Positions 26,480 through 64,000 are shown, counted from the first letter of the stretch. The stretch: 64,000 bases of DNA from Candidatus Bathyarchaeia archaeon (GCA_049521795.1 JBEKOM010000004.1:81261-145260), one strand, 5' to 3'. Translations and numbers: made by a program. Notes: generated by a model not told the origin, from the letters alone.

Positions 26480-27370
26480 ATGAATAAGAACGGCATCCTT
26501 GCCCAATTCTTGATCCATTGTCAAAAAACTGCCTTGTCCGAAGAAACCATCAACACCAAATACAAAGTTCTCAGAGTAATGCTCACTAATAACGTCAACC
26601 TAAACGACTCTGACCAAGTTAAGATTTTCATTCACAACCGCAAACAATGGAGTAACGGACACAAAAGCATAGCCGTATTTGCCTATGATGAATACTGCAA
26701 AATGAAAGAAATCCAATGGACTCCGCCAGAATATCCCAAAAACGAGACTCTACCATTCGTTCCAACTGAAAAAGAAATAGACGCACTCATAAACGGAACA
26801 AGTACAAAAGTATCCATTACACTGCAAGCACTAAAAGAAACAGCGTTCCGTATCGGCGAACTCTGGAGATGTAAATGGACAGACATCGACGAAGAAAAAT
26901 CAACCCTGAAATGTAATCAGCCCGAAAAGAAATGTGCTCCAAGGGAAGTGCGAATCTCAAGTAAATTGATCGCAAGATTCAACCTTCTACCAAAAACCAA
27001 CGAGTATATATTCGGTAAAACGCGCATAAGTGCAACTCGAACAACTTTCTGCAACCAACGTAATAGCCTCGCCAGAAAACTCAACAACCCAAGACTCAAA
27101 CAAATACATTTTCATACCTTTAGACACTACCACGCCACTAGACTCTACAATGAAACAAAAAGTCTTATAGAAGTACAAGCTCGCCTTGGACATCGAAACA
27201 TAAACTCAACCATGGTCCATACTCATATTGTACAATTCGATGAAGAGAGCCAAAACTATCATCATGCAATAGCTCGCAATGAAAAGGAAGCTGGCGAACT
27301 AATAGACAACGGATGGACGTACATCTGCACAACCCCACAGAATGTAATGATGTTCCGAAAACGCAAATAG
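26480..27370 (+). mobile_element. Tyrosine recombinase/integrase, probably inactive (His at the catalytic Tyr position)
   Basis: FRIGE, HTFRH, LGH motifs; STMVHTH where STxxYTH is expected; A/C-rich composition unlike the core genes. Confidence 0.9.
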
Positions 27371-27472
27371 CAACAACCTCCCCCTTTTTTATTACCAACA
27401 CAAAGCGCGCAAAGCTTCTTAAATCAAACCAAACAAACGAATGAAAGAATGTGCTAAGCAAGAGACAGAGAT

Positions 27473-28107
27473 GTGCTCAAATTGAAAGCAAAGTCAGCCA
27501 CAGAGAAATCTGAAAAAGAGGTCCTTTTTTTCCTAGAGCAATACTTTGGCGCAAAAGACATCGAAATAAACCCAAAAGTAGGAGACAAGAAAGCTGACTT
27601 CAAGGTCAAAAGCATTGACGCATACATCGAAGTTCATGCACTTAAAGACATCGCGAGCGACCAAATGGATATTCTGTCACGAGAAAAGAACATCACTCAT
27701 GTGAAATTGAAGAATGATGGACAAAAGAAGATTCTAGACAGAATAGCAAACAAGCTGCTTCATGAGTGCGCTCAGCTTCCTGAGGGAAAAAAAATCTAAT
27801 CGTAACGAAGACTGAGGGCCGCTTCCTTTGGCCAGAAGACGTCACTGACACTATTATTGGAGAACCTCATTTGCTTATCAACAAAGAGAACATGCAAACA
27901 AGTGTCGGACGTGGAACTACTGCTTTCAGGACTGATGAAGAACTTCAAGAAGTGTTGCGGAAGATTTCCGCTGTTCTTGCATACGAAGCGATTTGTCAGC
28001 ATGGCAAATTGTTGGGAATCTTGGGAAATAACAAGAACAATGCTGAAGTTCCTTTTGATGACGAAACCCTTGCAATTTTCAAGAACTTCCTGTGCGATAA
28101 ATGCTGA
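27473..28107 (+). pseudogene. PD-(D/E)XK-like protein split by a -1 frameshift at an A8 tract
   Basis: KADF..YIEVH..QLPEGK in 27473-27799 continues in the -1 frame as NLIVTK..WPEDV into ORF 27871-28107. Confidence 0.6.
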
Positions 28108-28156
28108 AGAGAGAAAGCTTCATCATACAATTACAGCGCTCCAGCAATATATTGGC

Positions 28157-28194
28157 TCGTGAGCCGTTCGGCTCACTCGCACGTTCCAGACGAT
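28157..28194 (+). repeat. 38-bp hairpin-containing direct repeat, copy 1
   Basis: TCGTGAGCCGTTCGGCTCACTCGCACGTTCCAGACGAT, identical to 29256-29293. Confidence 0.92.
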
Positions 28195-28265
28195 ACGTCA
28201 CAAACAGCCGAGCGCGCGCTAGAAAAAACTCTTTTATAATGAGATACCACTTTAGTCCATGGAAG

Positions 28266-28700
28266 TTGTCCACCGAGAAGGGTAATCCTCTATTCGGAGC
28301 ATGGAGGCTGAAATCGCTTGAAACAAAGGCATCTGACGGATCTGTCTCCTATCCGTGGGGGAAAGAAACTTTTGGCTACGTCGTCATCAGCCCAGAAGGC
28401 TACTTTTGCGTCGCAATAATGAGCGCTAATCGCAGAAGATTCTCCTCACAAGATATGAAGGGAGGTAGCGCGGAAGAAAGAGCGAACGCTGCAGATTCAT
28501 ACATATCGTACTCCGGACCGTGTGAAATCGAGAAAGACAAGTTTCGAGTAAAGGTAGAAGTCAGCCTGTTCCCCAATTGGGTAGGCGGAATCCAAGAACG
28601 CAACTACAAGATCGAGGGAAAAACGCTCTCTGTATCGACTACTCCAACTCTTGTAAACGGAAAAGAACAGGTAGGCTACTTGATTTTCGAACGCGTCTGA
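28266..28700 (+). CDS. Lipocalin-like domain protein
   Basis: LFGAWRL.S, YISYSG, SLFPNWVG..Q.R; TTTTATAA box about 30 nt upstream of TTG. Confidence 0.85.
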   Translation: MSTEKGNPLFGAWRLKSLETKASDGSVSYPWGKETFGYVVISPEGYFCVAIMSANRRRFSSQDMKGGSAEERANAADSYISYSGPCEIEKDKFRVKVEVSLFPNWVGGIQERNYKIEGKTLSVSTTPTLVNGKEQVGYLIFERV

Positions 28701-28831
28701 AACTGATCGCGCGCGCAAGATCAAGCCGAAGTTTTGAAGCCCCAAGATCCAAAACCTGTAAGCCGAGCCTCTTCTAGACTTCGAAAATTATTAAAGCACT
28801 ATTACGCATATCATATCTTCTGGGAACATAA

Positions 28832-28924: not shown

Positions 28925-29255
28925 GCCCCAAGAAAGAGCTTTGCAAAACTCTTTTTCTCTTTTTTCCATAAAGTTGGCTTCTTTAATGAAATGAAAGAAA
29001 GACGCGTCAGCTTTGGATATTATTGGCTTCCTCCATTAATGCGAAAGAAATATGTTTTAGTTTGTTTATTTATCGTTAATTTGTAGCTGAGATTCATGCC
29101 GAGTGTAATGAAACGTAAACAAAAGAATACTCAAATCGCACAACAGAAAAAGAAAGAACGAGATAAAGAAGCGAAAAAGAAACAGTTGAGACAGCAACTT
29201 CCTGCCAAGGGCAAGAAACGTTAAAGCCACTAAAGGAGCGCGCGCTCATCTTGGA

Positions 29256-29293
29256 TCGTGAGCCGTTCGGCTCACTCGCACGTTCCAGACGAT
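29256..29293 (+). repeat. 38-bp hairpin-containing direct repeat, copy 2
   Basis: Identical to 28157-28194. Confidence 0.92.
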
Positions 29294-33648: not shown

Positions 33649-34233
33649 ATGAAAACTACTGGATTTTTCTGGGGTAGATTTAATCCTCCGCATAAAGGCC
33701 ACGTTGAGATTATTAGAAGAATTCTAAGACAAGTGGATGATTTGATCGTGGTCATAGGAGCTTCCCAAAACAAGAATACTAAAAGCAATCCGTTCAGCGG
33801 GGAAGAGAGAAAGCAAATGCTGGAGGCATACTTGAAAGAAGAGGAGCTAGATGAGAAGGTAAAAATAATTCCACTTCCAGACAGTGAAGTGTCGATACAA
33901 GATGCAGTAAGATATGTTCTCAACAACACTCCGAAATTTGATGTCTCTTTTTCTACGCATGAAATAGAAGAACAGTTGACTCCGATAAAAATAGAAGTTG
34001 AAAAAACACTAGAACAAGAATTGAATAAGAGAAAAATCAAAATTGTCAAGTTTAGAAGAATGGGAACACTATCTTCTTCGAAGATCAGAGAAGCCATAGC
34101 TTATGATAAAAAATGGGAGTATATGACAGGTAAGTCTGTGGTGAGAATAATCAAAGAACTAAATGGAATAGAAAGAATAAAGAAAGCGCATAACAGTAGT
34201 TACACACAATCGAAGAGAAAGAGAAAAGGATAA
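33649..34233 (+). CDS. nadM: NMN adenylyltransferase-like cytidylyltransferase family protein
   Basis: GRFNPPHKGH, SNPFSGEER, SSSKIR. Confidence 0.8.
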   Translation: MKTTGFFWGRFNPPHKGHVEIIRRILRQVDDLIVVIGASQNKNTKSNPFSGEERKQMLEAYLKEEELDEKVKIIPLPDSEVSIQDAVRYVLNNTPKFDVSFSTHEIEEQLTPIKIEVEKTLEQELNKRKIKIVKFRRMGTLSSSKIREAIAYDKKWEYMTGKSVVRIIKELNGIERIKKAHNSSYTQSKRKRKG

Positions 34234-34330
34234 GCGCGCTTCACAAACCTATGGTTATTCGTCCTCGGGCGCCTTGTATTAGGGTAAGGTTAATTTTTGC
34301 CTTCGCAGTAGTTTGAAAGGGGCGATCCGA

Positions 34331-37495: not shown

Positions 37496-37816
37496 AATCG
37501 TGAAGAAGACAGCGAGAAAAGCTGCATGGCGTTTTCCGATGAAGGATTGTTACTTTCACGGTTCGAGCCGGGTGCTCTCTCGCTCTCACACCCTCCCCCC
37601 CGGGTATCCTATATGACCCAAATATGGTTAGGTAGTCAGAAATGACTATCCGCATATGGTTCAAGAGCAGAGTTGCACTAGCTACTGCCCGAAAGAATTA
37701 AGGAACACGCTAGCGCGCTAGGAGAAGAAAAAGAAAAGATGGCTTATTTTTGACCCATCGCCTGGGCTGTCGCAAGGTATTTATGTATGCAATTGATATC
37801 TTTTGTATACGGTGAC

Positions 37817-38649: not shown

Positions 38650-38665
38650 AGGTTGAGCAAATTCA

Positions 38666-38817
38666 GCGCGCTGGCTTGTCCCTAAATTCGAAAAAAAAAG
38701 TAACTGAAAGCATATACATTTCGCATATACGTTTTGCATATACAGTTGACGAGCATTGTTGAAAACGGTGAGGCTGTTCACGTCGGCTGCCGAGCTGCGT
38801 GGACTGTTCAAGTGCGC
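38666..38817 (+). repeat. Conserved ~150-bp noncoding element, copy 1
   Basis: GCATATAC at 38710, 38723, 38736, then GAGCATTGTTGAAAACGGTGAGGCTG...GGACTGTTCAAGTGCGC. Confidence 0.85.
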
Positions 38818-38879
38818 AATGAGTCGATAGACTCAACAAAAAACGCACGCTGAGAATGAACAATGCCCAACGATTGAGG

Positions 38880-39399: not shown

Positions 39400-39601
39400 G
39401 TCTCGTGCGGTTGCTTCTTAGCTGCAGGAGCCTGAGTTGTGTTCTCATCGGCTACACGTTCGAATAGCCTTCCGCGCGCTGTGAGACGCCTAGAGAACTG
39501 AATGAGATTTAAGATAAAGCCGATGCCTATATCTTAGGAGCTCCATTGTACTGTTTGGATGTAAATGGTTTAATGAGGACTGAAGGAATGGGAGTGGGAA
39601 C

Positions 39602-39895
39602 ATGATTTCGTCCAAGGCGAAAAATCGAATGAAGCGTGAGCTAGCCTTAGGGAAGCCAACAATATGGGTTGGTAAGGAGGGAGCGTCGCCGCAGACGATG
39701 AATGAGATTTCTAGGCAGTTGGAGAAGAGGAAAATGGTGAAAGTCCAAATATTGAATAGCGCGCTTGTGAATGAGAGCGCCAAAGACATCGCGTCAAAAA
39801 CAGCTCAGCAAACAGGATCCGTTTTAATCGATGTTCGAGGCCACACTTTCATACTGCATAAGCCTCGCAAAAAGAGAAGTGAAAAGCCTCCGTGA
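39602..39895 (+). CDS. yhbY: YhbY/CRM RNA-binding protein
   Basis: KPTIWVGKEG, EI..QL....MVKV, LIDVRG.TFIL. Confidence 0.88.
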   Translation: MISSKAKNRMKRELALGKPTIWVGKEGASPQTMNEISRQLEKRKMVKVQILNSALVNESAKDIASKTAQQTGSVLIDVRGHTFILHKPRKKRSEKPP

Positions 39896-40378
39896 GAGGA
39901 CCGTTTAAAGGGTTTTGAAAGGGATTGGATTGTGATAATCTTGTTAGGGAAGGTTCAAAAACACCCACTTCGTTCATGCCTTTGACCTTGCCTTCATGAA
40001 CCTGCCTCCGTCAAGAGATCCTAAAATGGCTGACGCATCCATTGACAAAGGCGCGCGCGTCTTTCTTGATGAGCATGACCATTCTGACTGAGTGTGCTCT
40101 TTTCATCCTCTTCAACTATCGAACAGCCTAGCGCGCGCACTATCTTACTCTCTTGTTTCTCCGAAGCAAGCGTTTGTTTGGGAGTTTTGGTTTCTTCACA
40201 CGTTTTGCATCCGTCGCAGCCAAGACTAGACCCTCAAGACAGTTTTGACCCTCGTTTCTCTTAAAGCTACTGTACAGCGCGCTCTAATGATTGTGGAGAC
40301 GACTTACAAATTTAGCGCGCTGGATCGATAGGCATGCGGAACATGCTAGAAATCGGCTATTAACCCGAAAATCTTGCA

Positions 40379-40570
40379 TTAGGGTTTAGTGCGGGCGGCG
40401 CTTGGCTTCTTTACCCATTCTATTTTAGTAGAGTAGGCTTCACGCAATTGTGGAGAAGTAATGGGTTTCCATTCTTTGGCCACTGCAAGCATTCGACTTT
40501 TGGATTTGCTAGTCTTGTCTTTTCGTTTGGGCTTTTGTTTCCCTCTCGGTTTGTAATGTTCAGGTTTCAT
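40379..40570 (-). CDS. Small basic hypothetical protein
   Basis: Lys-rich ORF filling the segment between GC motifs at 40315 and 40636. Confidence 0.5.
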   Translation of the reverse strand: MKPEHYKPRGKQKPKRKDKTSKSKSRMLAVAKEWKPITSPQLREAYSTKIEWVKKPSAARTKP

Positions 40571-41030
40571 GTTCGATCTCCGCTGGTTCAAGCTTAGATA
40601 TCTAACATATAGGAGTTTTGTAACCTTTTGATTTAGCGCGCTACTAACAAAGGGTTGATACTGGCTATTTCCATGACCGAAAGCAACCTGCGTGTGTCAT
40701 CTATTTTTTGAGCTCTGCGACTAGCAGATGTAGATTGGTTTTCCCTGTGTTCTCGGCTTCATGTGATCGTGCCTTGAGGAAGAGCCTCTTGGCCGCTTTT
40801 GTGTCCAAAACATCTGTTTTTCCTGAGGATGTCAGTTTTAGTTTGCCACCTTAGCGCTCGAATCCGGGACAAGGGAACTGCAGGAAAATGTCCTCATGAT
40901 GCTCTGTTGGTTAATCGGTTTATAAGGAAGTGTGTGCATTATGGGGCAGTAGCGTTCTGTTGTTGACGGACGAGAAGAACACAGCAACGTTGCACGACAC
41001 AATCAATGATGAAAGGGGTGATAGAAAGAA

Positions 41031-41315
41031 ATGGCTGAAGAATCTGCAATTGTTTTCATTGGAAGTAAACCACCAATGGACTATGTTCTAGCAGTTATGA
41101 CAAGACTATCGGCTGGCAATGCTAAGGAAGTAGTTTTGAAGGCAAGAGGACAGGCGATCACTACGGCTGTTGATGTGGCTGAAATAACCAGAAATCGCTT
41201 CCTGAAGGACCTGAAAGTGAGCAAGATAGCTGTAGGAACAGAGGAGATGCCGGCAAGAGAAGGCGAGAACAGGTCACGGATGGTTTCAATAATAGAAATA
41301 ACCCTTGCAAAATAG
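41031..41315 (+). CDS. albA: Alba chromatin/RNA-binding protein
   Basis: [35 protein letters not shown]. Confidence 0.95.
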
Positions 41316-41386
41316 CAGGAAACCTTGCGAAACACGCGTGCAATTATAGTGAGAGAATGTTTAGATACGGGTAACGATGAAGAACA

Positions 41387-42637
41387 ATGAAACTTGCTGT
41401 TCTGGTCTGGGAGTATCCACCGAGGATCGTCGGTGGCTTGGGAACCTACTCGGCTGAAATAACTCGCCAGTTTGTTCTCACGGACAATGATGTTACAGTT
41501 TTCACGATGAATGATGATGCAAATGCTTTGCCGACGCGTGAGATTTGGCACGGTATCGAAATCCACAGGCCGCTGCACATTGACATTTCTGACTCGTTGC
41601 CCGATGTTGTTGCAGAAGACCTACGGAAATGGGGTAGTGGGTTACAGTGGTTTTCAAAGATCCTCGTTTATAATTATCTGAGCGCTGCAAAACTCGTGAA
41701 TGAGCTGATAAGAAAAGAACGCATCAAATTCGACCTTGTCGTTGCTCATGACTGGCTTTCAGGTATAGGTGGAATGGCTGTTAAGAAAGAGGCAGGACTT
41801 CCTTTTGCGTTTCACGTTCACTCGACAGAGAAAGGGAGGACGCTTGGAAAGGGCTCGGTTACGGTGAGCAACATTGAACTTCACGTTGCTAGAGCGGCTG
41901 ACCTTATCGTGACAGTTTCTTATGCGATGAAGGATGAGCTGGTGGGCCTAGGTTGTCCAAAAGAAAAGATTCAGGTTGCTTACAACGGGGTCGACCCGAA
42001 GAAGTACGACCCCGCAACAGTGACGTCTGAGCAGATCAAGAAGGTCAGAGAATTGTATGGTATCAAAGACGATGAGTACATGATTCTTTTTATAGGTCGA
42101 CTCGCCGGTATGAAAGGTGTTGATAAACTGATTATGGCTTTGCCGCATGTTTTGCAGAAGAATCCTAAGGCGAAGCTTGTTATCGTTGGTCTTGGCGACT
42201 TGCAGGAATACTTGATGAATCTGGTGAAAGCTACGAAGATGAGTGATTTCGTGAAGTTCAGGTTCGAATTCATTCCCGAGGAAGAACGTATTCTTCATTA
42301 TGCTGCATGTGACGTTGCAGTTTTCCCAAGTTTCTATGAGCCCTTCGGAATAGTCGTTCTGGAGGCAATGAGTATGGAGCGACCAGTTGTCATCGGTGCA
42401 GCCGGCATCAGCGGCATGCGAGAAATAGTCGTGTATTACGGCGAAGACCAGTGCGGTTACCACATAGATCCAAACAACCCGTCCGACATAGCTTGGGGCA
42501 TAAACAGCGTCTTGGAAAACGATGAGAAGAGAAAGTGGCTGGGCAAAAACGGCAGAAAGCGGGTCTTGAACGAGTTCACGTGGGACAAGATAGCTGAAAA
42601 AACATTGGGGCTTTATGAACAGATCATCAAACGCTAA
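41387..42637 (+). CDS. Glycosyltransferase family 4 (glycogen-synthase-like)
   Basis: WEYPPRIVGGLG, HDW, HSTE.GR, PSFYEPFGIV.LEAM. Confidence 0.92.
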   Translation: MKLAVLVWEYPPRIVGGLGTYSAEITRQFVLTDNDVTVFTMNDDANALPTREIWHGIEIHRPLHIDISDSLPDVVAEDLRKWGSGLQWFSKILVYNYLSAAKLVNELIRKERIKFDLVVAHDWLSGIGGMAVKKEAGLPFAFHVHSTEKGRTLGKGSVTVSNIELHVARAADLIVTVSYAMKDELVGLGCPKEKIQVAYNGVDPKKYDPATVTSEQIKKVRELYGIKDDEYMILFIGRLAGMKGVDKLIMALPHVLQKNPKAKLVIVGLGDLQEYLMNLVKATKMSDFVKFRFEFIPEEERILHYAACDVAVFPSFYEPFGIVVLEAMSMERPVVIGAAGISGMREIVVYYGEDQCGYHIDPNNPSDIAWGINSVLENDEKRKWLGKNGRKRVLNEFTWDKIAEKTLGLYEQIIKR

Positions 42638-42642
42638 GCTTG

Positions 42643-42793
42643 ACGCGCTGGCTCGTCGTTAAATTTGCTGATATTTGTTTTTTAAGAGCTTATACGTTTT
42701 GCTTATACACTTTGTATATACACTTAACATGCATCATTGAGAACGGTGAAGCTGCTAGGTCGAATGCGAAACCGTATGGACTGTTCAAGTGCA
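42643..42793 (+). repeat. Conserved ~150-bp noncoding element, copy 2
   Basis: GCTTATAC at 42688 and 42701, GTATATAC at 42714, then GCATCATTGAGAACGGTGAAGCTG...GGACTGTTCAAGTGC. Confidence 0.82.
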
Positions 42794-42881
42794 AACGCAC
42801 GATAGAGGGATAAGGGCAGCGCGGCGGTCCAACGTTTAGCCCGGAGTTTTTCGGTGAATTCGTGACTGTTGTTTGAAGTTT

Positions 42882-43442
42882 TTATTCGTAGAATATGAGG
42901 TCTTGTTCTTCCAAGCTGGCGTGAAGCTTGTGCACTGCGTCATAAACGTCCTGTTCTTTCTTCGCTCCGGTGCAGACAAGGTTTCCGCTTGCGAATATCA
43001 GTATGACCACTTTAGGCTCGTCCATCCTGTAGATCAGTCCTGGAAACTGCTCGGGCTCGTACATGGTTTTTACGAGCTTGCCGACTGCCTGTTCCAAGTC
43101 TACTTTTCCGCCTAGGCTTACGGAGGCAACGATGTTCTGAATCTTCAGCTCCGGTTTGCTGATGATGATTATTCCGCTCTTTTTCAACTCTTTAACAACC
43201 GTCAATACGGCCCTGCGGGCTTCTTTTTCGGATTTTGCTCCTGTGCACACCATTTTTCCAGAGTTGAAGATCAGCGTGGCCGTCTTCGGTCTCTTAAGCC
43301 TGAACACAAGTCCAGGAAACTGTTCTGGACGATATTCTACGCCTGGGTAACTCTTCACGATAGCGTTCAAGTCAATTCTCTGGTTTAACGTGGCAGAAGC
43401 AACGACGTTTTGAATTTTTATTATGGCTTTAGTCTTCGGCAT
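42882..43442 (-). CDS. tbp: TATA-box binding protein, paralog B
   Basis: IQNVVAS, YRPEQFPGLVFR, YEPEQFPGLIYR, LIF.SG..VCTGAK. Confidence 0.95.
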   Translation of the reverse strand: MPKTKAIIKIQNVVASATLNQRIDLNAIVKSYPGVEYRPEQFPGLVFRLKRPKTATLIFNSGKMVCTGAKSEKEARRAVLTVVKELKKSGIIIISKPELKIQNIVASVSLGGKVDLEQAVGKLVKTMYEPEQFPGLIYRMDEPKVVILIFASGNLVCTGAKKEQDVYDAVHKLHASLEEQDLIFYE

Positions 43443-44139: not shown

Positions 44140-44430
44140 CTAACTTGTTTCCACTCTTGTTTTTTTCACTCGACAAATCCATCGCTAAAACAATAGATCT
44201 GCAATGTGCATCTCAATACTGTCAATACCACTTATATAGCTTAGCTGCTGGGCGTAACATTTTATGGTTATCGAAGTCGCCTGAGGTACGCTCTAGCGTT
44301 TGGCGCGTTCTAGCTGAGCAGTTCGATCCTTGCGCCCATTGCTTGTCCAAGCGCGCCTTCGTGGAATTTGGCTGTGACAACGCGCGCTAGATAAATCATA
44401 CAATATTATCCCCTGCAGGGGGATCGAAAG

Positions 44431-46835: not shown

Positions 46836-46896
46836 AGGCGGTCTTAGACCCTCATCATCACGGCGGTATATATCCACTTCGTCCTCTTTCGCTACA

Positions 46897-47063
46897 GCGC
46901 GCGAGCTTATCGCGAAAATTTTGCAGAAATTTGAAATTGAAAGCACATACAAAAAGCATATACATTTTGCATATACAGTGTATATACACGGCTTGCGAGC
47001 ATGATTGAGAACTGTGATGCTGTTCAGGTCGGATGCTGAGCTACGTGGCTGTTCAAGTGCGCA
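46897..47063 (+). repeat. Conserved ~150-bp noncoding element, copy 3
   Basis: GCACATAC 46943, GCATATAC 46956 and 46969, GTATATAC 46980, then GAGCATGATTGAGAACTGTGATGCTG...CTGTTCAAGTGCGC. Confidence 0.85.
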
Positions 47064-47071
47064 CGCATATC

Positions 47072-51532: not shown

Positions 51533-51762
51533 AGCCTTCCTGAAACCTCTGTACGTATCTGGATCACCGCGCTATTTTATACCAATGTGTGGTACTGGTC
51601 AGCCTAGAAATTAGTACGGTCAAAGACGAGCGCTAGGTTGTAGCGCGCGATGCTCGTGGGTAATAAGCGCGCGCTATAATCTACGTGACGATTGATGTTT
51701 TGTATGATGGTTAGAATTGGTGAGCGTGCGCGCATAGTGTCATGTAGACTTCATGATCATGG

Positions 51763-52038
51763 CTAAGGTTGGGCAACCGATGTTGCCTTTTTTTGTTGCT
51801 TGTCCGAATGTCCTTTAAGGAGCGATGTGACTATGCCAAATACTCCGACGATGAAAAGAATTATGCCACCCCATACTAACCCTATAGCCACGTCATAAGT
51901 CAATGTGTGACCAGCAGAAAACCATTTACTTAGATCAGAAAATACTCCCATTCCACCAATTATCCAACCGCAGATCCAAAAAATAATCCCAACCGCGATT
52001 ACCCAAATACTGGCAATCAGATATTTATTCATACACAT
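51763..52038 (-). CDS. Small membrane protein
   Basis: Two hydrophobic helices. Confidence 0.6.
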   Translation of the reverse strand: MCMNKYLIASIWVIAVGIIFWICGWIIGGMGVFSDLSKWFSAGHTLTYDVAIGLVWGGIILFIVGVFGIVTSLLKGHSDKQQKKATSVAQP

Positions 52039-52205
52039 CTGCGACCTGAAGATTATACCATCTAGTTATCGTGTTGGAATATAATTCTTTGCCTTAAATA
52101 CACCTGTAAGATAAAACTTTACGCCCAAACCCAAACCCACACACACAAAACATTTCAGCCTATGATTTTGCGGAAAAGTTATAGCTGAACTGCTCGCGCT
52201 AGCGC

Positions 52206-52235
52206 GCTGCCTTGTCCCTATATAACGTGTTGAAG
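52206..52235 (+). repeat. 30-bp direct repeat, copy 1
   Basis: GCTGCCTTGTCCCTATATAACGTGTTGAAG; 28/30 identical to 53932-53961. Confidence 0.88.
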
Positions 52236-53931: not shown

Positions 53932-53961
53932 GCTGCCTTGTCCCGATATTACGTGTTGAAG
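53932..53961 (+). repeat. 30-bp direct repeat, copy 2 (overlaps transposase 3' end)
   Basis: GCTGCCTTGTCCCGATATTACGTGTTGAAG. Confidence 0.88.
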
Positions 53962-54397: not shown

Positions 54398-54544
54398 CGC
54401 GCGCTATGTTATCCAAGTTCAAACTAGCCAAAATGGAGCAAGAACTCTCATTCTTCTCCATTCTAGACTTTTTACCCAATCAAATACAAATTGCTTAAGC
54501 AAGAAAATGTCAACCCAAATAATCTAGCAATAGGCTGGCGCGCG

Positions 54545-55228
54545 CTATCGTCTTTGAACATAGATGTAATTTGTCTTGTGCCCTATTCTTCGCCATCCAT
54601 CGTACAAATACGCGTATACCGTGTAGGGCCCCGTTTCCTTGGGCGTGAACTCGGCTGAGTAACGGGCTTCCTCTCCGGCGGAAAGTTCCTTTATTTCTGT
54701 TGTGGCCTGCTTTTCAGATTTTCCTGATGGGGGTTCCACCCAGAATTCCAGTTTCAATCCCGTACCTTTCCTCAGGCCCTTGACGGTTGCCTCGGCCGAG
54801 AGGGTCTTTCCAATTTGCGTATATGGATGCGAAAGCACCAGTACGCGTTCGAGTTCCGCTTTTTCCTCGCTTACGTAGATGCGAGTCCAGCCGGATTCCC
54901 ACCAGAAGTAGTTTTTTTCTTCATGTGCCATGATGGTGGCGTATACATCAGCTGACCCTAACGCATTAATCCGGAAAACCAGTTCGACCTCTTCATTTGG
55001 CTTTAACGCTTTAAGGTATTGTCCAGCTCCAAACGCATACCATGTTCCATAGACGGTTAGGTGATATGTATCCAAAGAGTGCAATTGTATGTCGACTCCT
55101 GTAAGAGTGTCCCTTGATGTGTTTTTCAGTTTCAATGTTACCCAGCTAGTTCCTTTCTCCACTGTCGTAGGATTCAACTCGTACTCCATGGGGTACTTAT
55201 ATCTCGACATTGTTGCCGTCATTTTCAA
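54545..55228 (-). CDS. Hypothetical protein with two beta-sandwich (Ig/CARDB-like) domains
   Basis: L.P.EE, L.AGEE..Y..F.P..G.Y.V patterns. Confidence 0.65.
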   Translation of the reverse strand: MKMTATMSRYKYPMEYELNPTTVEKGTSWVTLKLKNTSRDTLTGVDIQLHSLDTYHLTVYGTWYAFGAGQYLKALKPNEEVELVFRINALGSADVYATIMAHEEKNYFWWESGWTRIYVSEEKAELERVLVLSHPYTQIGKTLSAEATVKGLRKGTGLKLEFWVEPPSGKSEKQATTEIKELSAGEEARYSAEFTPKETGPYTVYAYLYDGWRRIGHKTNYIYVQRR

Positions 55229-55601
55229 TTCACCGTTATCCCATACTGTACTACATGTGTATGCACTTTTAAGATTTTTTTGTTTTATGTGTTTATGTAT
55301 TTAACGCGCGCGGTTCATTATGAGGGGGTAAGTTTTTGAGCGAATTTTACCCCTCGTAGCATCAACCGACTATCCTATCCTTATCCTGTTCCATTAATGT
55401 CCATTGATGTATCAGCGCGCGCGTGGTTGCTAAAGCATTGAACCGAGAATCTGAAGAATTCTAACAGAAAGTCAGAGAAGTTTGTAACGTATCTGAGAGA
55501 GAAAAGAACAAGTAACTTTTACCATGGGGTGATAGAAAAAGCGGAAAACTTGCAGCACTTATCGCATTTTAGTTCTTTTCAGAACGGTGTTTAGAAACTC
55601 A

Positions 55602-55775: not shown

Positions 55776-55950
55776 GACAAAATTCTCCTAATGATAATGG
55801 TGTTTGAGCAGTTAATAACCTTTAGCTCGGTCTCACCTCGAGGGAGTAAGCGCGCGCGATGTCCGTGGGCTGAAGTCGTAAAGAATATATGGATATCGGT
55901 TGTTCGATATCGGGAAGTGCGTGTTACGCAATTGTCTTCGTCATTCGTAG

Positions 55951-56946
55951 GTGACCGGTGTGGTTGAGGGCCTTGTGATCGAAACGAGGGAGCTTAGGAA
56001 GACTTTCGTTTCTAAAGAGAGAGGTGGAAAGAAGCAGGTTGAAGCGGTTAAGGGCATAGACCTCGCTGTGAGGAGAGGGGAGATTTTTGGTTTTCTCGGT
56101 CCGAACGGCGCTGGTAAGTCTACGACGCAGAGGATGCTTTCCACTCTTCTGTGTCCTACTGGTGGAGAGGCGAAGATACTGGGGTATGACTTGGCGGAGG
56201 AGCAGGAGGAGATTAGGCAGAACGTCGGGTACGTGAGCCAAGCCGGCGGGGCAGACTTGGCTTCTACGGGTCTTGAGAATCTGGTCTTGCAGGCTCAGCT
56301 GTACGGTTTGGACGTTTTGACCGCGAAGAAATACGCGGCCGAGTTTGCGGAGCGTTTCCAGATGAACTCGTTTGTTAATAGGCCTGCCTCGTCCTACTCG
56401 GGTGGCCAGAAACGCCGCTTGGACGTTGCGCTCGGGATGATTCATCATCCGCGGCTGCTTCTGCTCGATGAACCGACGTCGGGTCTTGACCCGCAGAGCA
56501 GAGCGTACCTGTGGGAGCAGATTAGGAAGCTGAAGGCTGAGGGGGTGACCGTTTTCTTGACGACCCAGTACATGGATGAGGCCGACAAGCTTTGCGACAG
56601 AATAGCGATCATAGATAACGGGGTGATCGTCGTAACCGGGACGCCGGAGGAGTTGAAGGGCAACGTCGGCGGCGACACGATCGTGTTCGGTTTTCCCATG
56701 GAGGAGGTCGCCCGCAAGGCCGAAGCTGTGTTGACGGAGAACACTCAGCTGGAGAAGATTCACTCGGTGAACAGTTCCGTGCTTCTGTACGCTAAGGACG
56801 GGGAGAGAATGATGCCTGACCTTCTAAGGTCGCTGGATGCAAAACGCTTAGACGTGCAAAGCATCATGTTGTCCAGGCCGAGTCTGGATGACGTTTTCTT
56901 GAAGTACACTGGCCGTTCACTGAGGGAGGATGAGAGGGAAAAATGA
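55951..56946 (+). CDS. DrrA-like ABC exporter ATP-binding protein
   Basis: GPNGAGKST, YSGGQKRR, LDEPTSGLDPQSR, PSLDDVFL. Confidence 0.93.
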   Translation: MTGVVEGLVIETRELRKTFVSKERGGKKQVEAVKGIDLAVRRGEIFGFLGPNGAGKSTTQRMLSTLLCPTGGEAKILGYDLAEEQEEIRQNVGYVSQAGGADLASTGLENLVLQAQLYGLDVLTAKKYAAEFAERFQMNSFVNRPASSYSGGQKRRLDVALGMIHHPRLLLLDEPTSGLDPQSRAYLWEQIRKLKAEGVTVFLTTQYMDEADKLCDRIAIIDNGVIVVTGTPEELKGNVGGDTIVFGFPMEEVARKAEAVLTENTQLEKIHSVNSSVLLYAKDGERMMPDLLRSLDAKRLDVQSIMLSRPSLDDVFLKYTGRSLREDEREK

Positions 56947-57710
56947 AAATGAAGATGTTACGCGACACGAAGTTGATGTTCGTCCGCAACGTGCAGCACA
57001 CGGTTCGCAACCCAGTTTTTGTTTTTGCAAGCATGTTTCAGCCGCTTCTTTATCTGCTCTTGTTCATGCCGCTTCTGAACAGTCTCGGCGGTGTTTCAGG
57101 GTTACCAGTAGGGAAGACGGTTGACGTGTTCATCCCGGGCCTTTTGGTTATGCAGGCGCTGTTCGGTTCAGCGTTCGTGGGGTTCTCGCTTATCGATGAC
57201 ATCAGATCGGGTGTAATAGAGCGTTTCTTGGTGACTCCCGTGGGACGGTCAGCGATCCTGTTGGGCAGAGTTCTTAGAGACGGTGTTGTTCTCCTTCTCC
57301 AATGCGTCCTGATAACGCTTGTCGCGATCCCGTTTGGGCTAAGCGTGAACGCCGGTGGATTCTTGCTCTCTCTGGTGCTGTACGCTTTGATCGGAGTTTC
57401 GATGGCTTCCATGTCGTACGGTTTTGCTCTTATTTACAAGGTTGAAGACCCTTTGGCTCCGACGCTGAACACGATAGCGCTGCCCGTTTCTCTGCTATCA
57501 GGAATCATCCTTCCTCTCGCGCTTGCTCCTCTCTGGCTTCAAGACGTCGCGAAGGGTAATCCGTTCTCGTACGGAGTTGATGCTGCACGCGCGTTGTTTG
57601 CGGGCAACTTTCAGAACGTCGCGATCTTCGAGGGTTTCGTCATCATCACCGTGCTTGCAATCGTCATATTCCTGTTGGCGTTGAGGCAGCTCAACAAAAT
57701 GGCGTCATGA
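56943..57710 (+). CDS. ABC-2 permease (DrrB-like)
   Basis: FQPLLYL, PG, G..ER..VTP..R, NPFSY.VDA.R. Confidence 0.9.
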   Translation: MKMKMLRDTKLMFVRNVQHTVRNPVFVFASMFQPLLYLLLFMPLLNSLGGVSGLPVGKTVDVFIPGLLVMQALFGSAFVGFSLIDDIRSGVIERFLVTPVGRSAILLGRVLRDGVVLLLQCVLITLVAIPFGLSVNAGGFLLSLVLYALIGVSMASMSYGFALIYKVEDPLAPTLNTIALPVSLLSGIILPLALAPLWLQDVAKGNPFSYGVDAARALFAGNFQNVAIFEGFVIITVLAIVIFLLALRQLNKMAS

Positions 57711-57787
57711 CTGCAAGCCGATTACTTTGCAGTTCTTCGGTACCGGTGCGTTGTTGGCGCGTGCTCAATTTGTCACAATCGCATGTC

Positions 57788-58873
57788 TTAACGCGAGTAT
57801 TTGAAGCTGAAGCCTTTCTGAACTTTCTTAACTGTGGCTGTCAAGAGCTTGACGGAATTGACAACGTCATTGACGTCCAAGACTTCGTACGAGTGGGCAT
57901 ATCTCGTTGGAATGGAGATCACGCCACTGGGAACACCTTCCCTCGTCAAATGAATCGTTGCCGCGTCAGTAGAACCATGGGGCAAGACTTCCATTTGATA
58001 TGGAATTTTCTCCTCCTCTGCGCTCGAAACCAGAAGCTCCCTCACTTTTGGATGAGAGATCAAACCCAGAGCTCCACCTGCGTTATCCATGACTTTTATG
58101 GCTGGACCCGCGCCAACTTTGGTCACTTGATCTTTTTCGGCGATGCCTGGAATGTCTCCAGCAAGTGTTATGTCAACGGCTATAGCCATGTCGGGAGCGA
58201 TCTTGTATGCTGCGACTTGTGCTCCACGGCAACCGACTTCTTCTTGGACGTCTGCTACGCCGTAAACGTTTGCTTCAAGTTTCTCTTTTGCAAGTTTCTT
58301 CATGGTTTCTATGGTCACGCACACGCCGACCCGATCGTCAAACGCCTTGCTGGCAAGTATATTTCCCGATCCGAGAGCTTTGAATGGCCGTTCGAAAGTG
58401 ACTGAGTCTCCGATGTGGATGCCTAGCCTCTCAGCTTCTTTCCTGTTCTTAGCTCCTATGTCGATAAAAAACGCCTTTAGATCAGGCATTTTATTCGCTT
58501 CTTCCGGTGTTTCGGGAGGCTTGCAGTGAGTCAAGCCGCTTACTGGACCTTTCTTGCAATGGACGGTGACAGACTGGGAGAATAAAGATCTTGGAGACAC
58601 TCCGCCGATTCTTTCGAAGTGTAGAAAGCCCTTCTCATCGATGTGCTTGATGAGAAGCCCGATCTCGTCCATGTGCCCGGCAAGCATGATCTTTGGGCCG
58701 TCCTTCACACTGGCTTTTTTCAGGGATATCACGTTGCCGAAATTATCTGTCTCGATCGAGTCGACATATCGTTCAAGCTCATGGTAAATTATCTTTCCAA
58801 CATCCATCTCGTATCCGGCGACTCCGGAGGCTTCAGTCAGACGTTTCAGAAGACCCTTTATTTCGTTCTCCAA
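57788..58873 (-). CDS. M42 family (TET-like) aminopeptidase
   Basis: AGHMDEIG, KAFDDR, VQEEVG.RGA, VDIT, GSTDA, PTRYAHS. Confidence 0.93.
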   Translation of the reverse strand: MENEIKGLLKRLTEASGVAGYEMDVGKIIYHELERYVDSIETDNFGNVISLKKASVKDGPKIMLAGHMDEIGLLIKHIDEKGFLHFERIGGVSPRSLFSQSVTVHCKKGPVSGLTHCKPPETPEEANKMPDLKAFFIDIGAKNRKEAERLGIHIGDSVTFERPFKALGSGNILASKAFDDRVGVCVTIETMKKLAKEKLEANVYGVADVQEEVGCRGAQVAAYKIAPDMAIAVDITLAGDIPGIAEKDQVTKVGAGPAIKVMDNAGGALGLISHPKVRELLVSSAEEEKIPYQMEVLPHGSTDAATIHLTREGVPSGVISIPTRYAHSYEVLDVNDVVNSVKLLTATVKKVQKGFSFKYSR

Positions 58874-59080
58874 GCCAATTCAACTCGCAACGCGTGCGCT
58901 GATAGCGTGCACTATGCTGTAGTGTCAATAAAAGATTTTTCCAGATCCACGCGCGCCTGAGCAGGGGACGCGAAGGAATCAGGGGAGTTGATACTTGGCT
59001 AACAAGAGACCAGTAGCGCGCATTAATTCAAAGTTTTCAGGCTGCTTTGTGGGTAGTAACTGCAGAGACTTTATTGTGCC

Positions 59081-59467
59081 TCAACCAATTGGGGTGTTTC
59101 GGTCGAAATAACTGGTCTCCTGTTCAACCTGCACTGTGAGGCCTGATTTAGTGAGGAAGTCTTCCACCGTGTGAACGTAGGAGTCGTGGGCACCGTAGGT
59201 GATTCCAAGAAGCCCAGACCCTGCGGCGCATGCGATGATTTCGAGTCGCGTCTCAGTGTTCGAGACTTCTTCCAGAGTGATTAACAATGCTGCGTCGTTC
59301 TTCACTCTGAAAAAAAAGTGTTCTCCCAGGATGACTCCTATCGAAGGTTCTCCGGCCTTCCCAAACTTCTTTGCGTATATGTCCCCGAATTCCGTTCCTA
59401 ATTCTTGGAAGACCTTCTCGAATGAGCCCTTGACAGTGCACCTTAAATAATGAGATGTCACGCGCAA
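59081..59467 (-). CDS. Hypothetical protein
   Basis: 128-aa ORF, E.FFFRV.N...L, AGSGL..YGA pattern. Confidence 0.65.
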   Translation of the reverse strand: MRVTSHYLRCTVKGSFEKVFQELGTEFGDIYAKKFGKAGEPSIGVILGEHFFFRVKNDAALLITLEEVSNTETRLEIIACAAGSGLLGITYGAHDSYVHTVEDFLTKSGLTVQVEQETSYFDRNTPIG

Positions 59468-59556
59468 TTCGCCTCCAAATACGCCTTCTAAGGCTCGTGC
59501 ACTTAACTATTTGCTCTTAGCAGAGCGCGCTTTGAATACATCTGTGGAAAAAATGG

Positions 59557-61009: not shown

Positions 61010-61414
61010 GTGAAAAGGAAATACGATTTTGACGCGTTAGCGCTGCAATACGGGTTCAGCGCCAAAGAAATAGAAAAAGTGTGCCGAATCTCGGATCTGC
61101 TGGAGGACATCTCAGCTGTGAAATTCCTCTCAGACCGCCTATCACTTTACGGCGGAACAGCTCTCACATTCATTTACTCACCAGAAATTCTGCGATTGTC
61201 CATAGACCTTGACTTCAACTACCGACACACGGACAATGCAGACTGGGGGGAGGTCCGAGAGAAAATCGACGAACGGCTGAAAGATCTAATCTACCGACAA
61301 GAATACGACCAGGCGGACATCGCCATAAACGCAAGCTATCCGCTCACACGACTTACTGTCAGATACGTCAATGCTCATGGCTTTGCGGAACGTTCTCAGC
61401 ATAAAAACCGATGA
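61010..61414 (+). pseudogene. AbiEii nucleotidyltransferase toxin, C-terminally truncated
   Basis: IEKV, L.GGTAL...Y...RLS.DLDFNY; only 134 aa. Confidence 0.75.
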
Positions 61415-61614
61415 TAGCAGTTTTGGCACAGATATCGTCGCACTTATCCAAACAATGAGCGCGCGCAATAGGTTACGGCCAACACGCTAGCCCTTGCTGA
61501 AACTTGTCTAGAGGATATTTGTCTTTGTAGAATGCGAATTCAGAGCTTTAGAGTGTTTGTAGTAAGAGTTAAGTGTAACTTGTGTGTTATTTTGTTATGG
61601 ATAAGGGATACTTC

Positions 61615-61809
61615 ATGAGCGTAACGAAGACCCGAAGGGTTGGCGGTTCGCTGGTCGTGACAATACCCAAGAAACTCATCGATAGTAAGAAAATCAAGGA
61701 AGGAGAGTTGGTGGAGATAAGCGTAAAGAAGGTAAAGATGGATGGGTTCGGAGCATTTAGAATGTTGAAACCGTTCACGGCAGAAGATGAGTTGAACGCG
61801 CATGACTAG
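61615..61809 (+). CDS. AbrB/MazE-type antitoxin
   Basis: RRVGGSLVVTIPK..IKEG..V. Confidence 0.85.
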   Translation: MSVTKTRRVGGSLVVTIPKKLIDSKKIKEGELVEISVKKVKMDGFGAFRMLKPFTAEDELNAHD

Positions 61810-62209
61810 AGGATATGTTGTTGACGCGTATGCTTGGGTAGAGTATCTGATTGGAAGCGACGTCGGCGCGAGAGTCAAGGTTGTACTTGAGGATGAGAAT
61901 AACGGGATTTACACGAGTGCTGTGACGCTTGGAGAGGTGATAAGCAAGATTGCTCGTGAAGAGCAGGACGTGTGTACTGCGTATCGCATTTTGCTCAGTA
62001 ACTCAGATGTCATTGACGTAGATGAGGAGTTGTCGAAGCAAACAGGAATAATTCACGCTGAAATGCGAAAGAGCAAGAAAGATTTCGGACTGGCCGACGC
62101 ATTCGTTTTGGCCACGGCAAGAAAACTTGGAACAAGAATCCTGACAGGTGACCCACACTTCCAAGGCATCAAAGAAGCGACGCTAGTGATAAAAAAGTCT
62201 GTTAGTTAA
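61802..62209 (+). CDS. vapC: VapC PIN-domain toxin
   Basis: VVDAYAWVEY, TLGEV, LADAFVLATA, LTGDPHF. Confidence 0.9.
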   Translation: MTRGYVVDAYAWVEYLIGSDVGARVKVVLEDENNGIYTSAVTLGEVISKIAREEQDVCTAYRILLSNSDVIDVDEELSKQTGIIHAEMRKSKKDFGLADAFVLATARKLGTRILTGDPHFQGIKEATLVIKKSVS

Positions 62210-62422
62210 TCTTCCATGACTCCTCCTGCGACGGGAGAGCAGATATCTCATAGTATCTAGGCATATCTCCTCGGTTAATAGGCAGAGGCGAAATCTACTA
62301 GGTAAGACATTCGGAACGGATTTTCTATCAAGCAGAGCCCTGATTCAGGTATCGACTATGGGGTAAGCAAAGTCTTATACAATCTGGGTTAAGACTAACT
62401 GTCTCCGAGACTAGCGCGCGGG

Positions 62423-63172
62423 TTGTGCATGGTCAAATATGAGCATAGAGGCAAGACTTCGAAACCGTTTGTGACTTTTTGGGGATCACTTACGAGCAAG
62501 GAAGGAGGAAGGGAGAGGGCACGCTGTGTGCTGGAACTCGTAAATGAATATTGCAAGCATGCAAAGAAGATTCTGGAAATAGGGTGCGGAATTGGAGAGG
62601 TCTTGGTTAATCTTCCCGAGAGATATGCTGTCTATGGTTTGGACGTTGAAAGGGACTACGTTGAGGTTTGCAGAAGGAGAATGCCCAGGGGCAAGTTTTT
62701 TGTTTCTAGCATGCACAATTTTAAGATTGATGAGAAGTTTGATGTTATATTCTCTGCTAACGATGCTGTCAACTTTCTGAAAGACTTTAGCCACTGGAGA
62801 TCAACGTTCAAGGCGGTGAGTGAACATCTTAACAGAGATGGGCTGTTCATCTTTGACGTGTACACTCCGAAGATGCTTAGAGACACGCTTCACTGGTTGG
62901 AAAAGTATAACAGGTCCACTTCGTCAGTCAGGGAATTTGCTAAAGGATTTTACTATGACAGGGAGATAGTGAAGGGCAACACGCTGACTTGGGATTCCAG
63001 AATCTTTGAAAAACTTCCAGATGGACTTTATCAGCTTCACAAGTACAAGTTTAAAGAAACAATCTACCCAGTTGCAAAGATGAAATCCGCTCTGTCTGAG
63101 TATTTCGAGATCGTTGAAGCCAATTTGACAGAAGAAGGCAGAAAGATACTCTTTGTCTGCAGAAAACGTTGA
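62423..63172 (+). CDS. Class I SAM-dependent methyltransferase
   Basis: ILEIGCGIG, GLD, FDVI, HL..DGLFIFD. Confidence 0.88.
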   Translation: MCMVKYEHRGKTSKPFVTFWGSLTSKEGGRERARCVLELVNEYCKHAKKILEIGCGIGEVLVNLPERYAVYGLDVERDYVEVCRRRMPRGKFFVSSMHNFKIDEKFDVIFSANDAVNFLKDFSHWRSTFKAVSEHLNRDGLFIFDVYTPKMLRDTLHWLEKYNRSTSSVREFAKGFYYDREIVKGNTLTWDSRIFEKLPDGLYQLHKYKFKETIYPVAKMKSALSEYFEIVEANLTEEGRKILFVCRKR

Positions 63173-63686
63173 AAGCGCGCGCTCACCTTGAAGAACCTTT
63201 CCACTTGGCATGCCCGATGTTCAGCATGAGCAAGCAGCGCGCGCTACGTTGTTGCACCAAGATCAGCTATGAAGTTTTCTTTTGTGTCACTCGTGGTTTT
63301 GAACGTTGACAGGCGCTCTGCTTATAGAACTTAGTTCAGTACGTCAAATCGGCATGTGTTCAGACAGTGCAAGCGCATGCCGGTGAGGAACGTTTAAGGC
63401 TCGTGGACGTCACAACGTTCGGGTACCCGGTCGTTTTTTGACTCTTATCGCTTTTCGGCCGTCAACGTAATGAAAGGCGGGTTGGCTTTGGGAATTATAA
63501 TGAGGTGTGGAAGTCTTATCAGTGAGCCTCCCCCGTCGTTTTTTGGGCGCGCGCCTTCTGTGTAAGGGTGGCGCGGAGACCACGGCAATAGCGCGCCCTT
63601 GGGATAAAACTTTACCCTTTCTCTCTCTGCAAAAGCCTTAAAATTGATTTGCGCTATTTCGATATCCAAAAGTGGTGTTCGTTGCA

Positions 63687-64000
63687 ATGGTCTACAAGAT
63701 TGTTAACTTGGTTGACGGTCGTGAAGCTGCACTTGATTGGGCGAGGAAGAAAGACCTTCCAGAGATTCTGGAGGTGGTGAACGACGTAATCAGAGAGGGA
63801 ATATACGGATCTTTTGAGCCGTATACCTCGAAAGGTCAACTCGCGTGGTTTGAACAGACGGCTAAAACGGGAATATTGAAACAGGACTTTTTTCTGATTG
63901 CAAGAGTTGATGGCAAAGTTGTTGGAGGCGCCAACGTTGTACCTGACCCAGAGGGTCACGTATATGCGCACGTTGCCCATTACAACATATTCATCAGCAA
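63687..64000 (+). CDS. GNAT-like acetyltransferase, 3' truncated by window edge
   Basis: Open frame MVYKIVNLVDGRE..KDLPEILEVVN..FLIARVDGKVVG running off the end. Confidence 0.65.
   Translation, partial: MVYKIVNLVDGREAALDWARKKDLPEILEVVNDVIREGIYGSFEPYTSKGQLAWFEQTAKTGILKQDFFLIARVDGKVVGGANVVPDPEGHVYAHVAHYNIFIS

Follow-up and report, generated by a model that had tools for sequence, protein, structure and literature searches.

Yeast mitochondrial GC clusters, structured GC-rich palindromes of 30 to 40 nt in organelle spacers, are mobile and form deletion hotspots, and nonhomologous end joining (NHEJ) yields deletions and small additions. Repetitive extragenic palindromic sequences and bacterial interspersed mosaic elements (REP/BIME, associated with RAYT), like miniature inverted-repeat transposable elements (MITEs), occur as hundreds of short palindromic noncoding elements that prefer positions after gene ends. 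Integrons, with their IntI integrase, attI site, and attC cassettes, have been reported in Archaea as well (10.1101/2022.02.06.479319), and filler DNA and synthesis-dependent microhomology-mediated end joining (SD-MMEJ) have been described elsewhere (PMC2943611, PMC5728401, and PMC11292364). Here, we analyze a 64,000-nt stretch of a genome assigned to “Candidatus Bathyarchaeia” (GCA_049521795.1, hereafter G000; contig C4, positions 81261 to 145260, the end of the stretch being the end of the contig), which we call the window, and, within it, an island of short tracts of alternating G and C that lies downstream of a tyrosine recombinase (integrase) gene. Tracts of this kind are found exactly at sites of structural difference between related genomes, and many of them are new 6- to 10-nt alternating-GC insertions at deletion junctions.

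The island resembles an integron in its gene-sized units with short palindromic joints, in the integrase at one edge, and in its accessory cargo (toxin-antitoxin pairs, GNAT proteins, methyltransferases, and ABC transporters), and a first-pass annotation had read it as an integron-like array, with gene modules captured by the neighboring tyrosine recombinase at a symmetric (GC)n crossover core. Unlike integrons, the island has no IntI-type integrase and, judging from its sequence, no attC structure; its units stand in mixed orientation and have their own promoters, and the joints occur throughout the G000 genome and are born de novo at deletions. SD-MMEJ and the tracts share deletions whose joints contain a few added nucleotides, seeds of at least 2 nt, and self-pairing 3' ends, but in SD-MMEJ, the filler is copied from sequence adjoining the break, whereas the tract filler is always alternating GC of 6 to 10 nt and the tracts are archaeal, mark hundreds of joints per genome, and are independent of Ku. 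G000 does carry an intact Prim-Pol/Ku/ligase-phosphoesterase operon of the kind used in Ku-LigD NHEJ, but most tract-rich genomes have no Ku or Prim-Pol. With REP/BIME and MITEs, the tracts share their numbers, brevity, and noncoding, gene-end location, but they measure only 6 to 10 nt, their flanks are unconserved, G000 (98.75% complete) has no match to the Y1 transposase profile (PF01797), and the tracts mark deletions and are not conserved. Yeast GC clusters are likewise short GC-rich palindromic inserts in AT-richer spacers, but a tract is a bare (GC)3-5 in an archaeal chromosome. Literature searches covering main records, with supplements outside their scope, returned no description of GC-tract joints, which, as a genome-wide phenomenon, are apparently new and undescribed.

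We define a tract as a maximal alternating run of G and C of at least 6 nt. The window holds 49 of them, 5 in positions 1 to 26479 and 44 in positions 26480 to 64000, the same figures that the first-pass annotation had given as estimates, and the latter 44 make up the island:

27405 to 63596, no strand: island of 44 alternating-GC tracts, 6 to 9 nt each (tract listing)

The first of these tracts (27405 to 27410) lies 34 nt past the end of the integrase open reading frame (ORF) at 27370, and four contacts with gene ends that had been pointed out previously are all present. GCGCGC at 34234 directly follows the TAA at 34231 to 34233, tract 54538 to 54545 shares one base with the stop codon of the minus-strand ORF 54545 to 55228, and ORF 62423 to 63172 is bracketed by tract 62414 to 62420, which stops 2 nt upstream of its longest start, and by the tract at 63175, which begins 2 nt past its end. 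By a crude mask (ORFs of at least 90 amino acids, greedily chosen, so that small genes count as noncoding), ORFs contain 9 of the 44 island tracts, and the other 35 lie outside; the tracts are thus mostly outside genes, as had been claimed, but more of them are inside than the 4 or so first counted. The ORFs of the island run in both orientations, also as described at first. All 5 tracts in the left part of the window are coding, and their context is unchanged in the sister genome.

That sister genome, G001, is complete and in a single contig, and we compared it in full with G000, obtaining 472 nonredundant high-scoring segment pairs (HSPs) and 280 collinear junctions, 277 of which have an indel of at least 60 nt. 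Breakpoints fall within 12 nt of a tract at 29 and 34 of the 277 junctions on the G000 side and at 50 and 51 on the G001 side, compared with 5.0% of random noncoding positions, and 99 of the 277 junctions have at least one breakpoint within this distance. When 250 nt on either side of each noncoding tract were examined, 170 internal ends of homology were found within 2 nt of 606 tracts, versus 70 for 1,500 random noncoding 8-mers, an approximately 6-fold excess that is confined to the tract itself, as the rates at positions off the tract are the same for tracts and random 8-mers. The arrangement is unchanged relative to G001 at 16.6% of noncoding tracts but at 41.5% of random noncoding sites. 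Tract density is highest in the parts of the genome with the fastest turnover: across 105 windows of 20 kb, it drops from 3.44/kb to 0.76/kb as the share of DNA alignable to G001 rises from below 25% to above 90% (rho = -0.55, p = 1e-9). The tracts themselves decay like neutral DNA, with orthologous noncoding tracts being 85.4% identical between the two genomes, compared with 88.0% for their flanks, and with 58 of 99 noncoding tracts in the same context still forming a tract of at least 6 nt in G001.

In the comparison of window positions 19752 to 64000 with G001, 17 of the 76 HSP ends are no more than 3 nt away from a tract; they represent 12 distinct positions, and chance alone would give about 1. 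Structural differences from G001 occur at 28 of the 44 island tracts (one flank is conserved at 18, the flanks are apart at 8, and G001 has extra DNA at 2); of the other 16, unique DNA accounts for 5 and unchanged context for 11. Together with the two-tract units found at other loci (see below), these numbers bear out the partition of the region into modules that was proposed at first.

Many of the differences are deletions at which a tract is new. The genome that lacks a segment often has (GC)3-5 exactly at the joint, and the genome that bears the segment has no tract at the segment ends. Twenty events could be mapped with a precision of 3 nt: in 13, both segment ends are free of tracts; in 4, one end has a tract; and in 3, both ends do. 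Of 20 events with the tract in G001, 9 have a G000 segment that cuts into ORFs, and remnants of those ORFs are still present in G001. Five scars were checked in outgroups, and the missing segment is present in genome G002 in all five cases and in more distant members of the genus (G004, G009, G008, and G005, at 65 to 78% identity) in four of the five; the scars are therefore derived deletions that carry a new tract. At least 2 nt of GC already existed at one end of the lost segment in 7 of the 13 tract-birth events, and the base at position -1 of the tract is A in 15 of the 20 mapped events. Tract insertions without any deletion also exist, in small number. In the events with a tract at one end, one flank is common to both genomes and the other flank differs, which suggests re-breakage at an existing tract. 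The island offers an example of each kind:

29238 to 29245 (G000 C4:110498 to 110505), no strand: tract at a deletion-type joint; G001 holds 658 nt between the same flanks (G001 comparison)
61010 to 61414, plus strand: truncated AbiEii toxin gene, profile positions 2 to 75 of 238, followed by tract 61459 to 61466 (profile match)

At the right flank of tract 61459 to 61466, G001 has (GC)5 and is without a further 178 nt of the AbiEii side, a difference that is consistent with re-breakage of the tract. A separate case is locus L143 (G000 C3:94001 to 97000), where 768 nt in G000 correspond to 25 nt in G004 (C78:8249 to 8274). The L143 gene is also lost in G001, with a (GC)5 scar, and the borders differ, so the deletion in G004 may be independent.

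The DNA between two tracts, comprising genes with their own promoters and small MITE-like repeats, recurs at other tract sites. The gene-bearing units of the island are as follows:

39473 to 40059, no strand: cassette consisting of a tract, 571 nt, and a tract, with a CRS1/YhbY (CRM) gene at 39602 to 39895, plus strand (G001 comparison)
55850 to 58956, no strand: ABC-transporter module of 3.1 kb, tract to tract, with genes at 55951 to 56946 and 56943 to 57710 (G001 alignment)
59016 to 59530, no strand: tract-to-tract module, at an unrelated locus in G001 (49919 to 49430; G001 HSPs)
61459 to 63182, no strand: tract-to-tract module with a PIN gene at 61802 to 62209 and a methyltransferase gene at 62423 to 63172 (G001 HSPs)

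The site of the YhbY cassette is empty in G001, where the same flanks are joined by a single tract. The cassette exists in three copies overall (two of them elsewhere in G001), all flanked by tracts and with identical inner ends. An aldo-keto-reductase cassette in G001 behaves in the same manner, as do two further units, such that gene-sized two-tract units are found at unrelated loci and the empty sites carry one tract. The ABC-transporter module is 94% identical to G001 positions 880713 to 883811, and the homology stops at both of its tracts. The island also contains additional genes of core type, encoding a TATA-binding protein (TBP), an Ssb-like OB-fold protein, and YhbY/CRM (42882 to 43442, minus strand; 43429 to 44139, minus strand; and 39602 to 39895, plus strand), and G001 has at least four TBP-like loci that match the TBP of the island.

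Short repeats, two families of them MITE-like, adjoin tracts within the island:

37524 to 37720, no strand: MITE-like family A, about 195 nt, at least 13 genomic copies; abuts tract 37713 to 37718 at its right end
38665 to 38818, no strand: MITE-like family B, about 25 copies; begins at tract 38666 to 38671
42644 to 42823 and 46897 to 47069: further copies of MITE-like family B
55312 to 55413, no strand: short dispersed repeat, family D, between tracts 55305 to 55312 and 55415 to 55423

Families A and B have the terminal repeat CTTGTYCCTRAATTC in common, and family B contains three GCATATAC repeats. The terminal repeat has about 23 matches in G000, 53 in G001, and 62 in G002 and is almost absent from the remaining genus members. 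A different repeat, a 30-nt direct repeat (93% identical) at 52206 to 52235 and 53932 to 53961, flanks a FIST-like gene of 521 amino acids; it holds a TGCCTTGTCCC motif followed by a TATA-like box, and its first copy comes directly after tract 52202 to 52207.

The tracts are not particular to the island. The G000 assembly (2.44 Mb) contains 1,130 tracts in all. About 20 of its short contigs (C32, C61, C22, C44, C33, C30, and others) have a G+C content of 58 to 65%, compared with about 48% elsewhere, and are probably foreign to the bin; the counts by coding status omit high-GC contigs that look foreign. Noncoding DNA holds 612 tracts (1.57/kb) and coding DNA 431 (0.22/kb), and relative to a first-order expectation, GCGCGC is enriched 11.4-fold in noncoding DNA and stands at 0.94-fold in coding DNA. 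For (GC)4, the noncoding excess is 73-fold (321 observed versus 4.4 expected), whereas dinucleotide repeats other than (GC)n reach just 2 to 5 times expectation there, which led us to reject generic microsatellite instability. (AC)4 and (GT)4, at about 5 times expectation in noncoding DNA, might be decayed (GC)n, because tracts decay mostly by transitions (GCGCGC to GCGTGC or GCACGC). A survey found the alternating-GC patterns GC6 and GC8, which are prone to form Z-DNA, to be generally suppressed in prokaryotes (PMC4060949), and the 73-fold excess of (GC)4 runs against the rule as given in that survey. The consensus of the 612 noncoding tracts is A-(GC)3-5-T, with flank information at positions -1 and +1 only and a weak T-A ... 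T-A preference outside the tract. Core lengths are distributed over 6 nt (about 264), 8 nt (about 251), 10 nt (about 36), and 12 nt (2). By type of spacer, density is 2.26/kb between convergent genes, 1.72/kb between tandem genes, and 1.28/kb between divergent genes, and tracts are frequent 0 to 60 nt past stop codons and scarce within 40 nt of starts. The region from 26480 to 64000, of which 25.6% is noncoding, has 3.64 tracts per noncoding kb and ranks 7th when windows of 37.5 kb are slid along the genome (346 in total), with parts of contigs C13 and C7 ahead of it. As to equal density elsewhere, which the first-pass annotation had put forward as a possible refutation, the island exceeds the genome-wide noncoding level, but the motif is not local, and other islands match or surpass this one.

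The integrase that borders the island is intact and is situated next to an RNA gene:

26132 to 26438, plus strand: archaeal RNase P RNA gene, upstream of the integrase gene (Rfam RF00373, 192 bits against a gathering threshold of 84, model positions 1 to 288 of 288)
26422 to 26438, no strand: candidate att repeat, left copy, formed by the final 17 nt of the RNase P RNA gene
26480 to 27370, plus strand: tyrosine recombinase (integrase), intact ORF of 296 amino acids (Pfam Phage_integrase, 1.2e-18)
61471 to 61487, no strand: candidate att repeat, right copy

The gap between the RNase P RNA gene and the integrase gene is 41 nt. The integrase scores 53.4 bits against the integron-integrase model TIGR02249 (cutoff, 265) and 21.9 bits against PRK15417 (cutoff, 435), and its best NCBIfam match is XerA_Arch (80 bits; cutoff, 220). 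The RNase P RNA gene is likely the integration target of the integrase element. G001 has the same backbone (842.8 to 887.1 kb) with a different integrase paralogue directly after its RNase P RNA gene, such that this gene looks like a recurrent integration site. The candidate att pair is a weak match (17 nt, 94% identity, with an E value of 0.055 in a small search space), and its right-hand sequence is also present in G001, after a (GC)5 tract, at about 885.3 kb; an old integrated element, about 35 kb in length, could have had its far border at positions 61471 to 61487. The best explanation for window positions 26.4 to 61.5 kb is an old, much-reshuffled genomic island adjoining the RNase P RNA gene, and the integrase is an ordinary recombinase of an integrative element that does not account for the tracts. 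Members of its family are found in 24 of 31 related genomes, tract-free genera included; in G002 and in G008, the orthologue is a pseudogene, and G001 has none above 33% identity. Homologues are located in G000 at C6:25519, C1:235747, C1:785958, C1:382592, C9, and C1:5386, and none lies in the other tract-dense islands of this genome. In the left part of the window, ORF 24553 to 25911 (minus strand) encodes 452 amino acids without a Pfam match, is made up of internal repeats of about 156 nt, and has a paralogue at C8:41952 to 43022.

The first-pass annotation had also raised the possibility that the junctions are assembly or library chimeras. The runs that contain the stretch are peat, soil, and wetland metagenomes, and we examined Logan contigs assembled from public runs, rather than the raw reads. 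Contigs of runs X1 and X3, from two studies, cross many island tracts with zero differences (tracts 34997, 37713, 38666, 39018, 40051 to 40315, 44351 to 46897, and 51643 to 52202); as X1 may be the source sample, X3 is the sole independent run. G001, a single contig, has the same tracts, and we therefore reject chimerism. One X1 contig, with a depth of about 156 (compared with about 25 for the strain of the window), joins position 40058 (right end of the YhbY cassette) to position 43454 (end of the TBP module) on opposite strands, so a more abundant relative has another arrangement at the same tract.

To follow the tracts across the class, we counted the 10-mer AGCGCGCGCT and its reversed control. 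Among the 31 relatives, there are 7 to 114 copies in the genus of the window, compared with 0 to 4 copies of the control, and 0 or 1 in other genera. We called a genome tract-rich if it had at least 10 copies of the 10-mer and the control was at most one-fifth of that number. By this definition, 27 of 301 genomes in a sample of the class are tract-rich and 274 are poor, and the tract-rich ones belong to at least seven families. In three distant tract-rich genomes, the loci sampled are noncoding, are flanked by A...T, and consist mostly of (GC)4 tracts, although the flank and length statistics of these loci are biased because the loci were picked at matches to the 10-mer. This patchy spread suggests either a transferable factor or a self-reinforcing process. 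Among the 31 relatives, Ku looked linked to the genus (8 of 11 genus genomes versus 1 of 20 outside it), as did the LigD Prim-Pol. In the class sample, Ku occurs in 73 of 301 genomes and Prim-Pol in 79 of 301, whereas each is found in only 6 of the 27 tract-rich genomes; many Ku-bearing genomes show no excess of tracts, and G016 has the operon yet no excess. Ku/LigD NHEJ as the maker of the tracts is therefore rejected. We also dropped a clue from G016, whose ligase is without the phosphoesterase part, because a stand-alone phosphoesterase is present in 27 of the 31 genomes. The Prim-Pol is split in G001 (C1:957247 to 957985; profile positions 1 to 214 and 215 to 246) and in G005 (C10:254436 to 255177; 1 to 98 and 95 to 247), which could be a frameshift or a sequencing error.

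We regard the tracts as the joints of a genome-wide, Ku-independent process of cutting and rejoining rather than as sites of the integrase, with the island being reshuffled DNA and the integrase an ordinary one, and we put the chance that this account is right at slightly below even. A short self-complementary (GC)n would be synthesized at the joint and would bridge the broken ends; it would often be seeded on GC already present at one end and be added preferentially to an end that stops in A. Any two (GC)n ends could then join, in either orientation, because (GC)n pairs with itself. Old tracts would break again, upon which the stretch between two tracts could be lost, moved, or flipped, and the joining would not depend on Ku/LigD. 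The predominance of tract births with deletions at tract-free sites, together with the GC seeds, favors such synthesis at the joint. More speculatively, several lineages may possess a transferable joining system that tags every joint with (GC)3-5 and re-cuts there, turning the DNA between tags into movable, invertible, and deletable cassettes; such a system would act across the whole genome much as an integron does, but without an integrase, and would drive the gain, loss, and shuffling of genes. Several points weigh against synthesis at the joint. Few tract-rich genomes have Ku or Prim-Pol, and searches for other candidate enzymes found reverse transcriptase in 0 of the 31 relatives and the PolX thumb in 0 of 11 genus genomes. 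To our knowledge, a stereotyped (GC)n filler is without precedent. Of the 277 junctions, 178 have no tract within 12 nt of a breakpoint, a share that is due partly to the imprecision of HSP ends, and the full-genome comparison covers one pair of genomes only. Two of the 13 tract-birth events are doubtful (one is in a tandem-repeat gene, and the other has a MITE-like end). MITE ends nearly always abut GCGCGC tracts, as a transposon model predicts, and core lengths stop sharply at 10 nt, which a 4-nt stagger or a target duplication fits better than free slippage does; these last two observations favor transposon footprints and a staggered nuclease as explanations.

Under the transposon model, which we consider unlikely though worth keeping in view, a cut-and-paste family with GC-alternating ends would have produced the tracts, as footprints or as target duplications; MITE-like families A and B would be nonautonomous members, intervening DNA would be mobilized by pairs of ends, and (GC)n, sometimes along with a deletion, would be left behind on excision. 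The terminal repeat shared by the two families, nearly every end of which abuts GCGCGC, agrees with this model, as do sites that are filled in G000 and matched by a single 7- to 9-nt tract in G001, cassettes with fixed ends at several loci, the weak T-A ... T-A preference beyond the tract, the 10-nt limit, and a patchy distribution in the class that is typical of mobile elements. However, no multicopy element of at least 500 nt that encodes a transposase was found in the complete G001, the Y1 search of G000 was likewise negative, and the terminal repeat has only 3, 2, and 1 matches in G009, G008, and G005, which have 82, 56, and 39 copies of the 10-mer, respectively, a disparity that weakens footprints of the CTTGTYCCTRAATTC family as the source of tracts. 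There are also about 600 noncoding tracts for about 35 to 45 MITEs, the flanking A/T is a preference and not a strict duplication, and single excisions should dominate under this model, yet pure tract insertions are about as rare as deletions. Less probable still is a trans-acting nuclease or recombinase specific for (GC)n, which would make restriction-like staggered cuts inside tracts that are then religated; this retains the symmetric core of the first-pass annotation but dispenses with the neighboring integrase. A 4-nt CGCG stagger would give 6 nt in full register, 8 nt when shifted, 10 nt when filled in, and hardly anything longer, in line with the observed core lengths; the 7 of 20 events with a tract at one or both ends fit cutting at tracts, and modules in either orientation, the opposite-strand joint of 40058 to 43454 in the public run, and the patchy distribution are all compatible with it. 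Such an enzyme could not make tracts at tract-free sites, the largest class of events (13 of 20), and GCGCGC is not avoided in coding DNA, C5 methyltransferase (PF00145, the one methylase class searched) occurs in just 3 of the 27 tract-rich genomes, and the flanks show no recombinase arms. Selection for the tracts as regulator sites, 3'-end signals, or Z-DNA elements is very improbable: their noncoding location, enrichment past stops and in convergent spacers, and depletion near starts would suit it, but they are no better conserved than their flanks, they coincide sharply with structural joints, and the suppression of such patterns reported for prokaryotes (PMC4060949) speaks against it; we reject it on the lack of conservation. 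The explanation to which we give the least credence of all is the integron-like array itself, with (GC)n cores serving the neighboring tyrosine recombinase as sites of cassette capture. The position of the integrase at the left edge, with a tract just beyond it and 44 tracts downstream, and the existence of tract-bounded modules prompted this idea. The motif, however, is genome-wide and class-wide, other dense islands have no such integrase, the protein belongs to a family that is shared with tract-free genera, its orthologue is decayed in G002 and G008 and missing above 33% identity in G001, its integron-integrase score is below cutoff, and its location is explained by the RNase P RNA gene and the candidate att repeat. 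No conserved arms were detected beside the 612 noncoding tracts and no inverted-repeat family at module borders, which agrees with the absence of a visible attC conceded at the outset. Moreover, most mapped events make a tract where none existed, so conservative site-specific recombination is not the process, and we reject both the integrase as the agent and (GC)n as its crossover core.

If synthesis at the joint and re-cutting of old tracts are real, a single 6- to 10-nt signature would preserve a record of deletions, insertions, and translocations, hundreds of them in each genome, and the history and rate of structural change would be readable directly in uncultured archaea. The signature would point to a form of end joining that operates without Ku and makes ends mutually sticky through added self-pairing sequence. 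It would also explain how accessory genes, along with spare copies of core genes (TBP, YhbY, and the Ssb-like protein), move as promoter-bearing cassettes, and the patchy distribution of tract-rich genomes across the class would offer a handle for finding the enzyme responsible.

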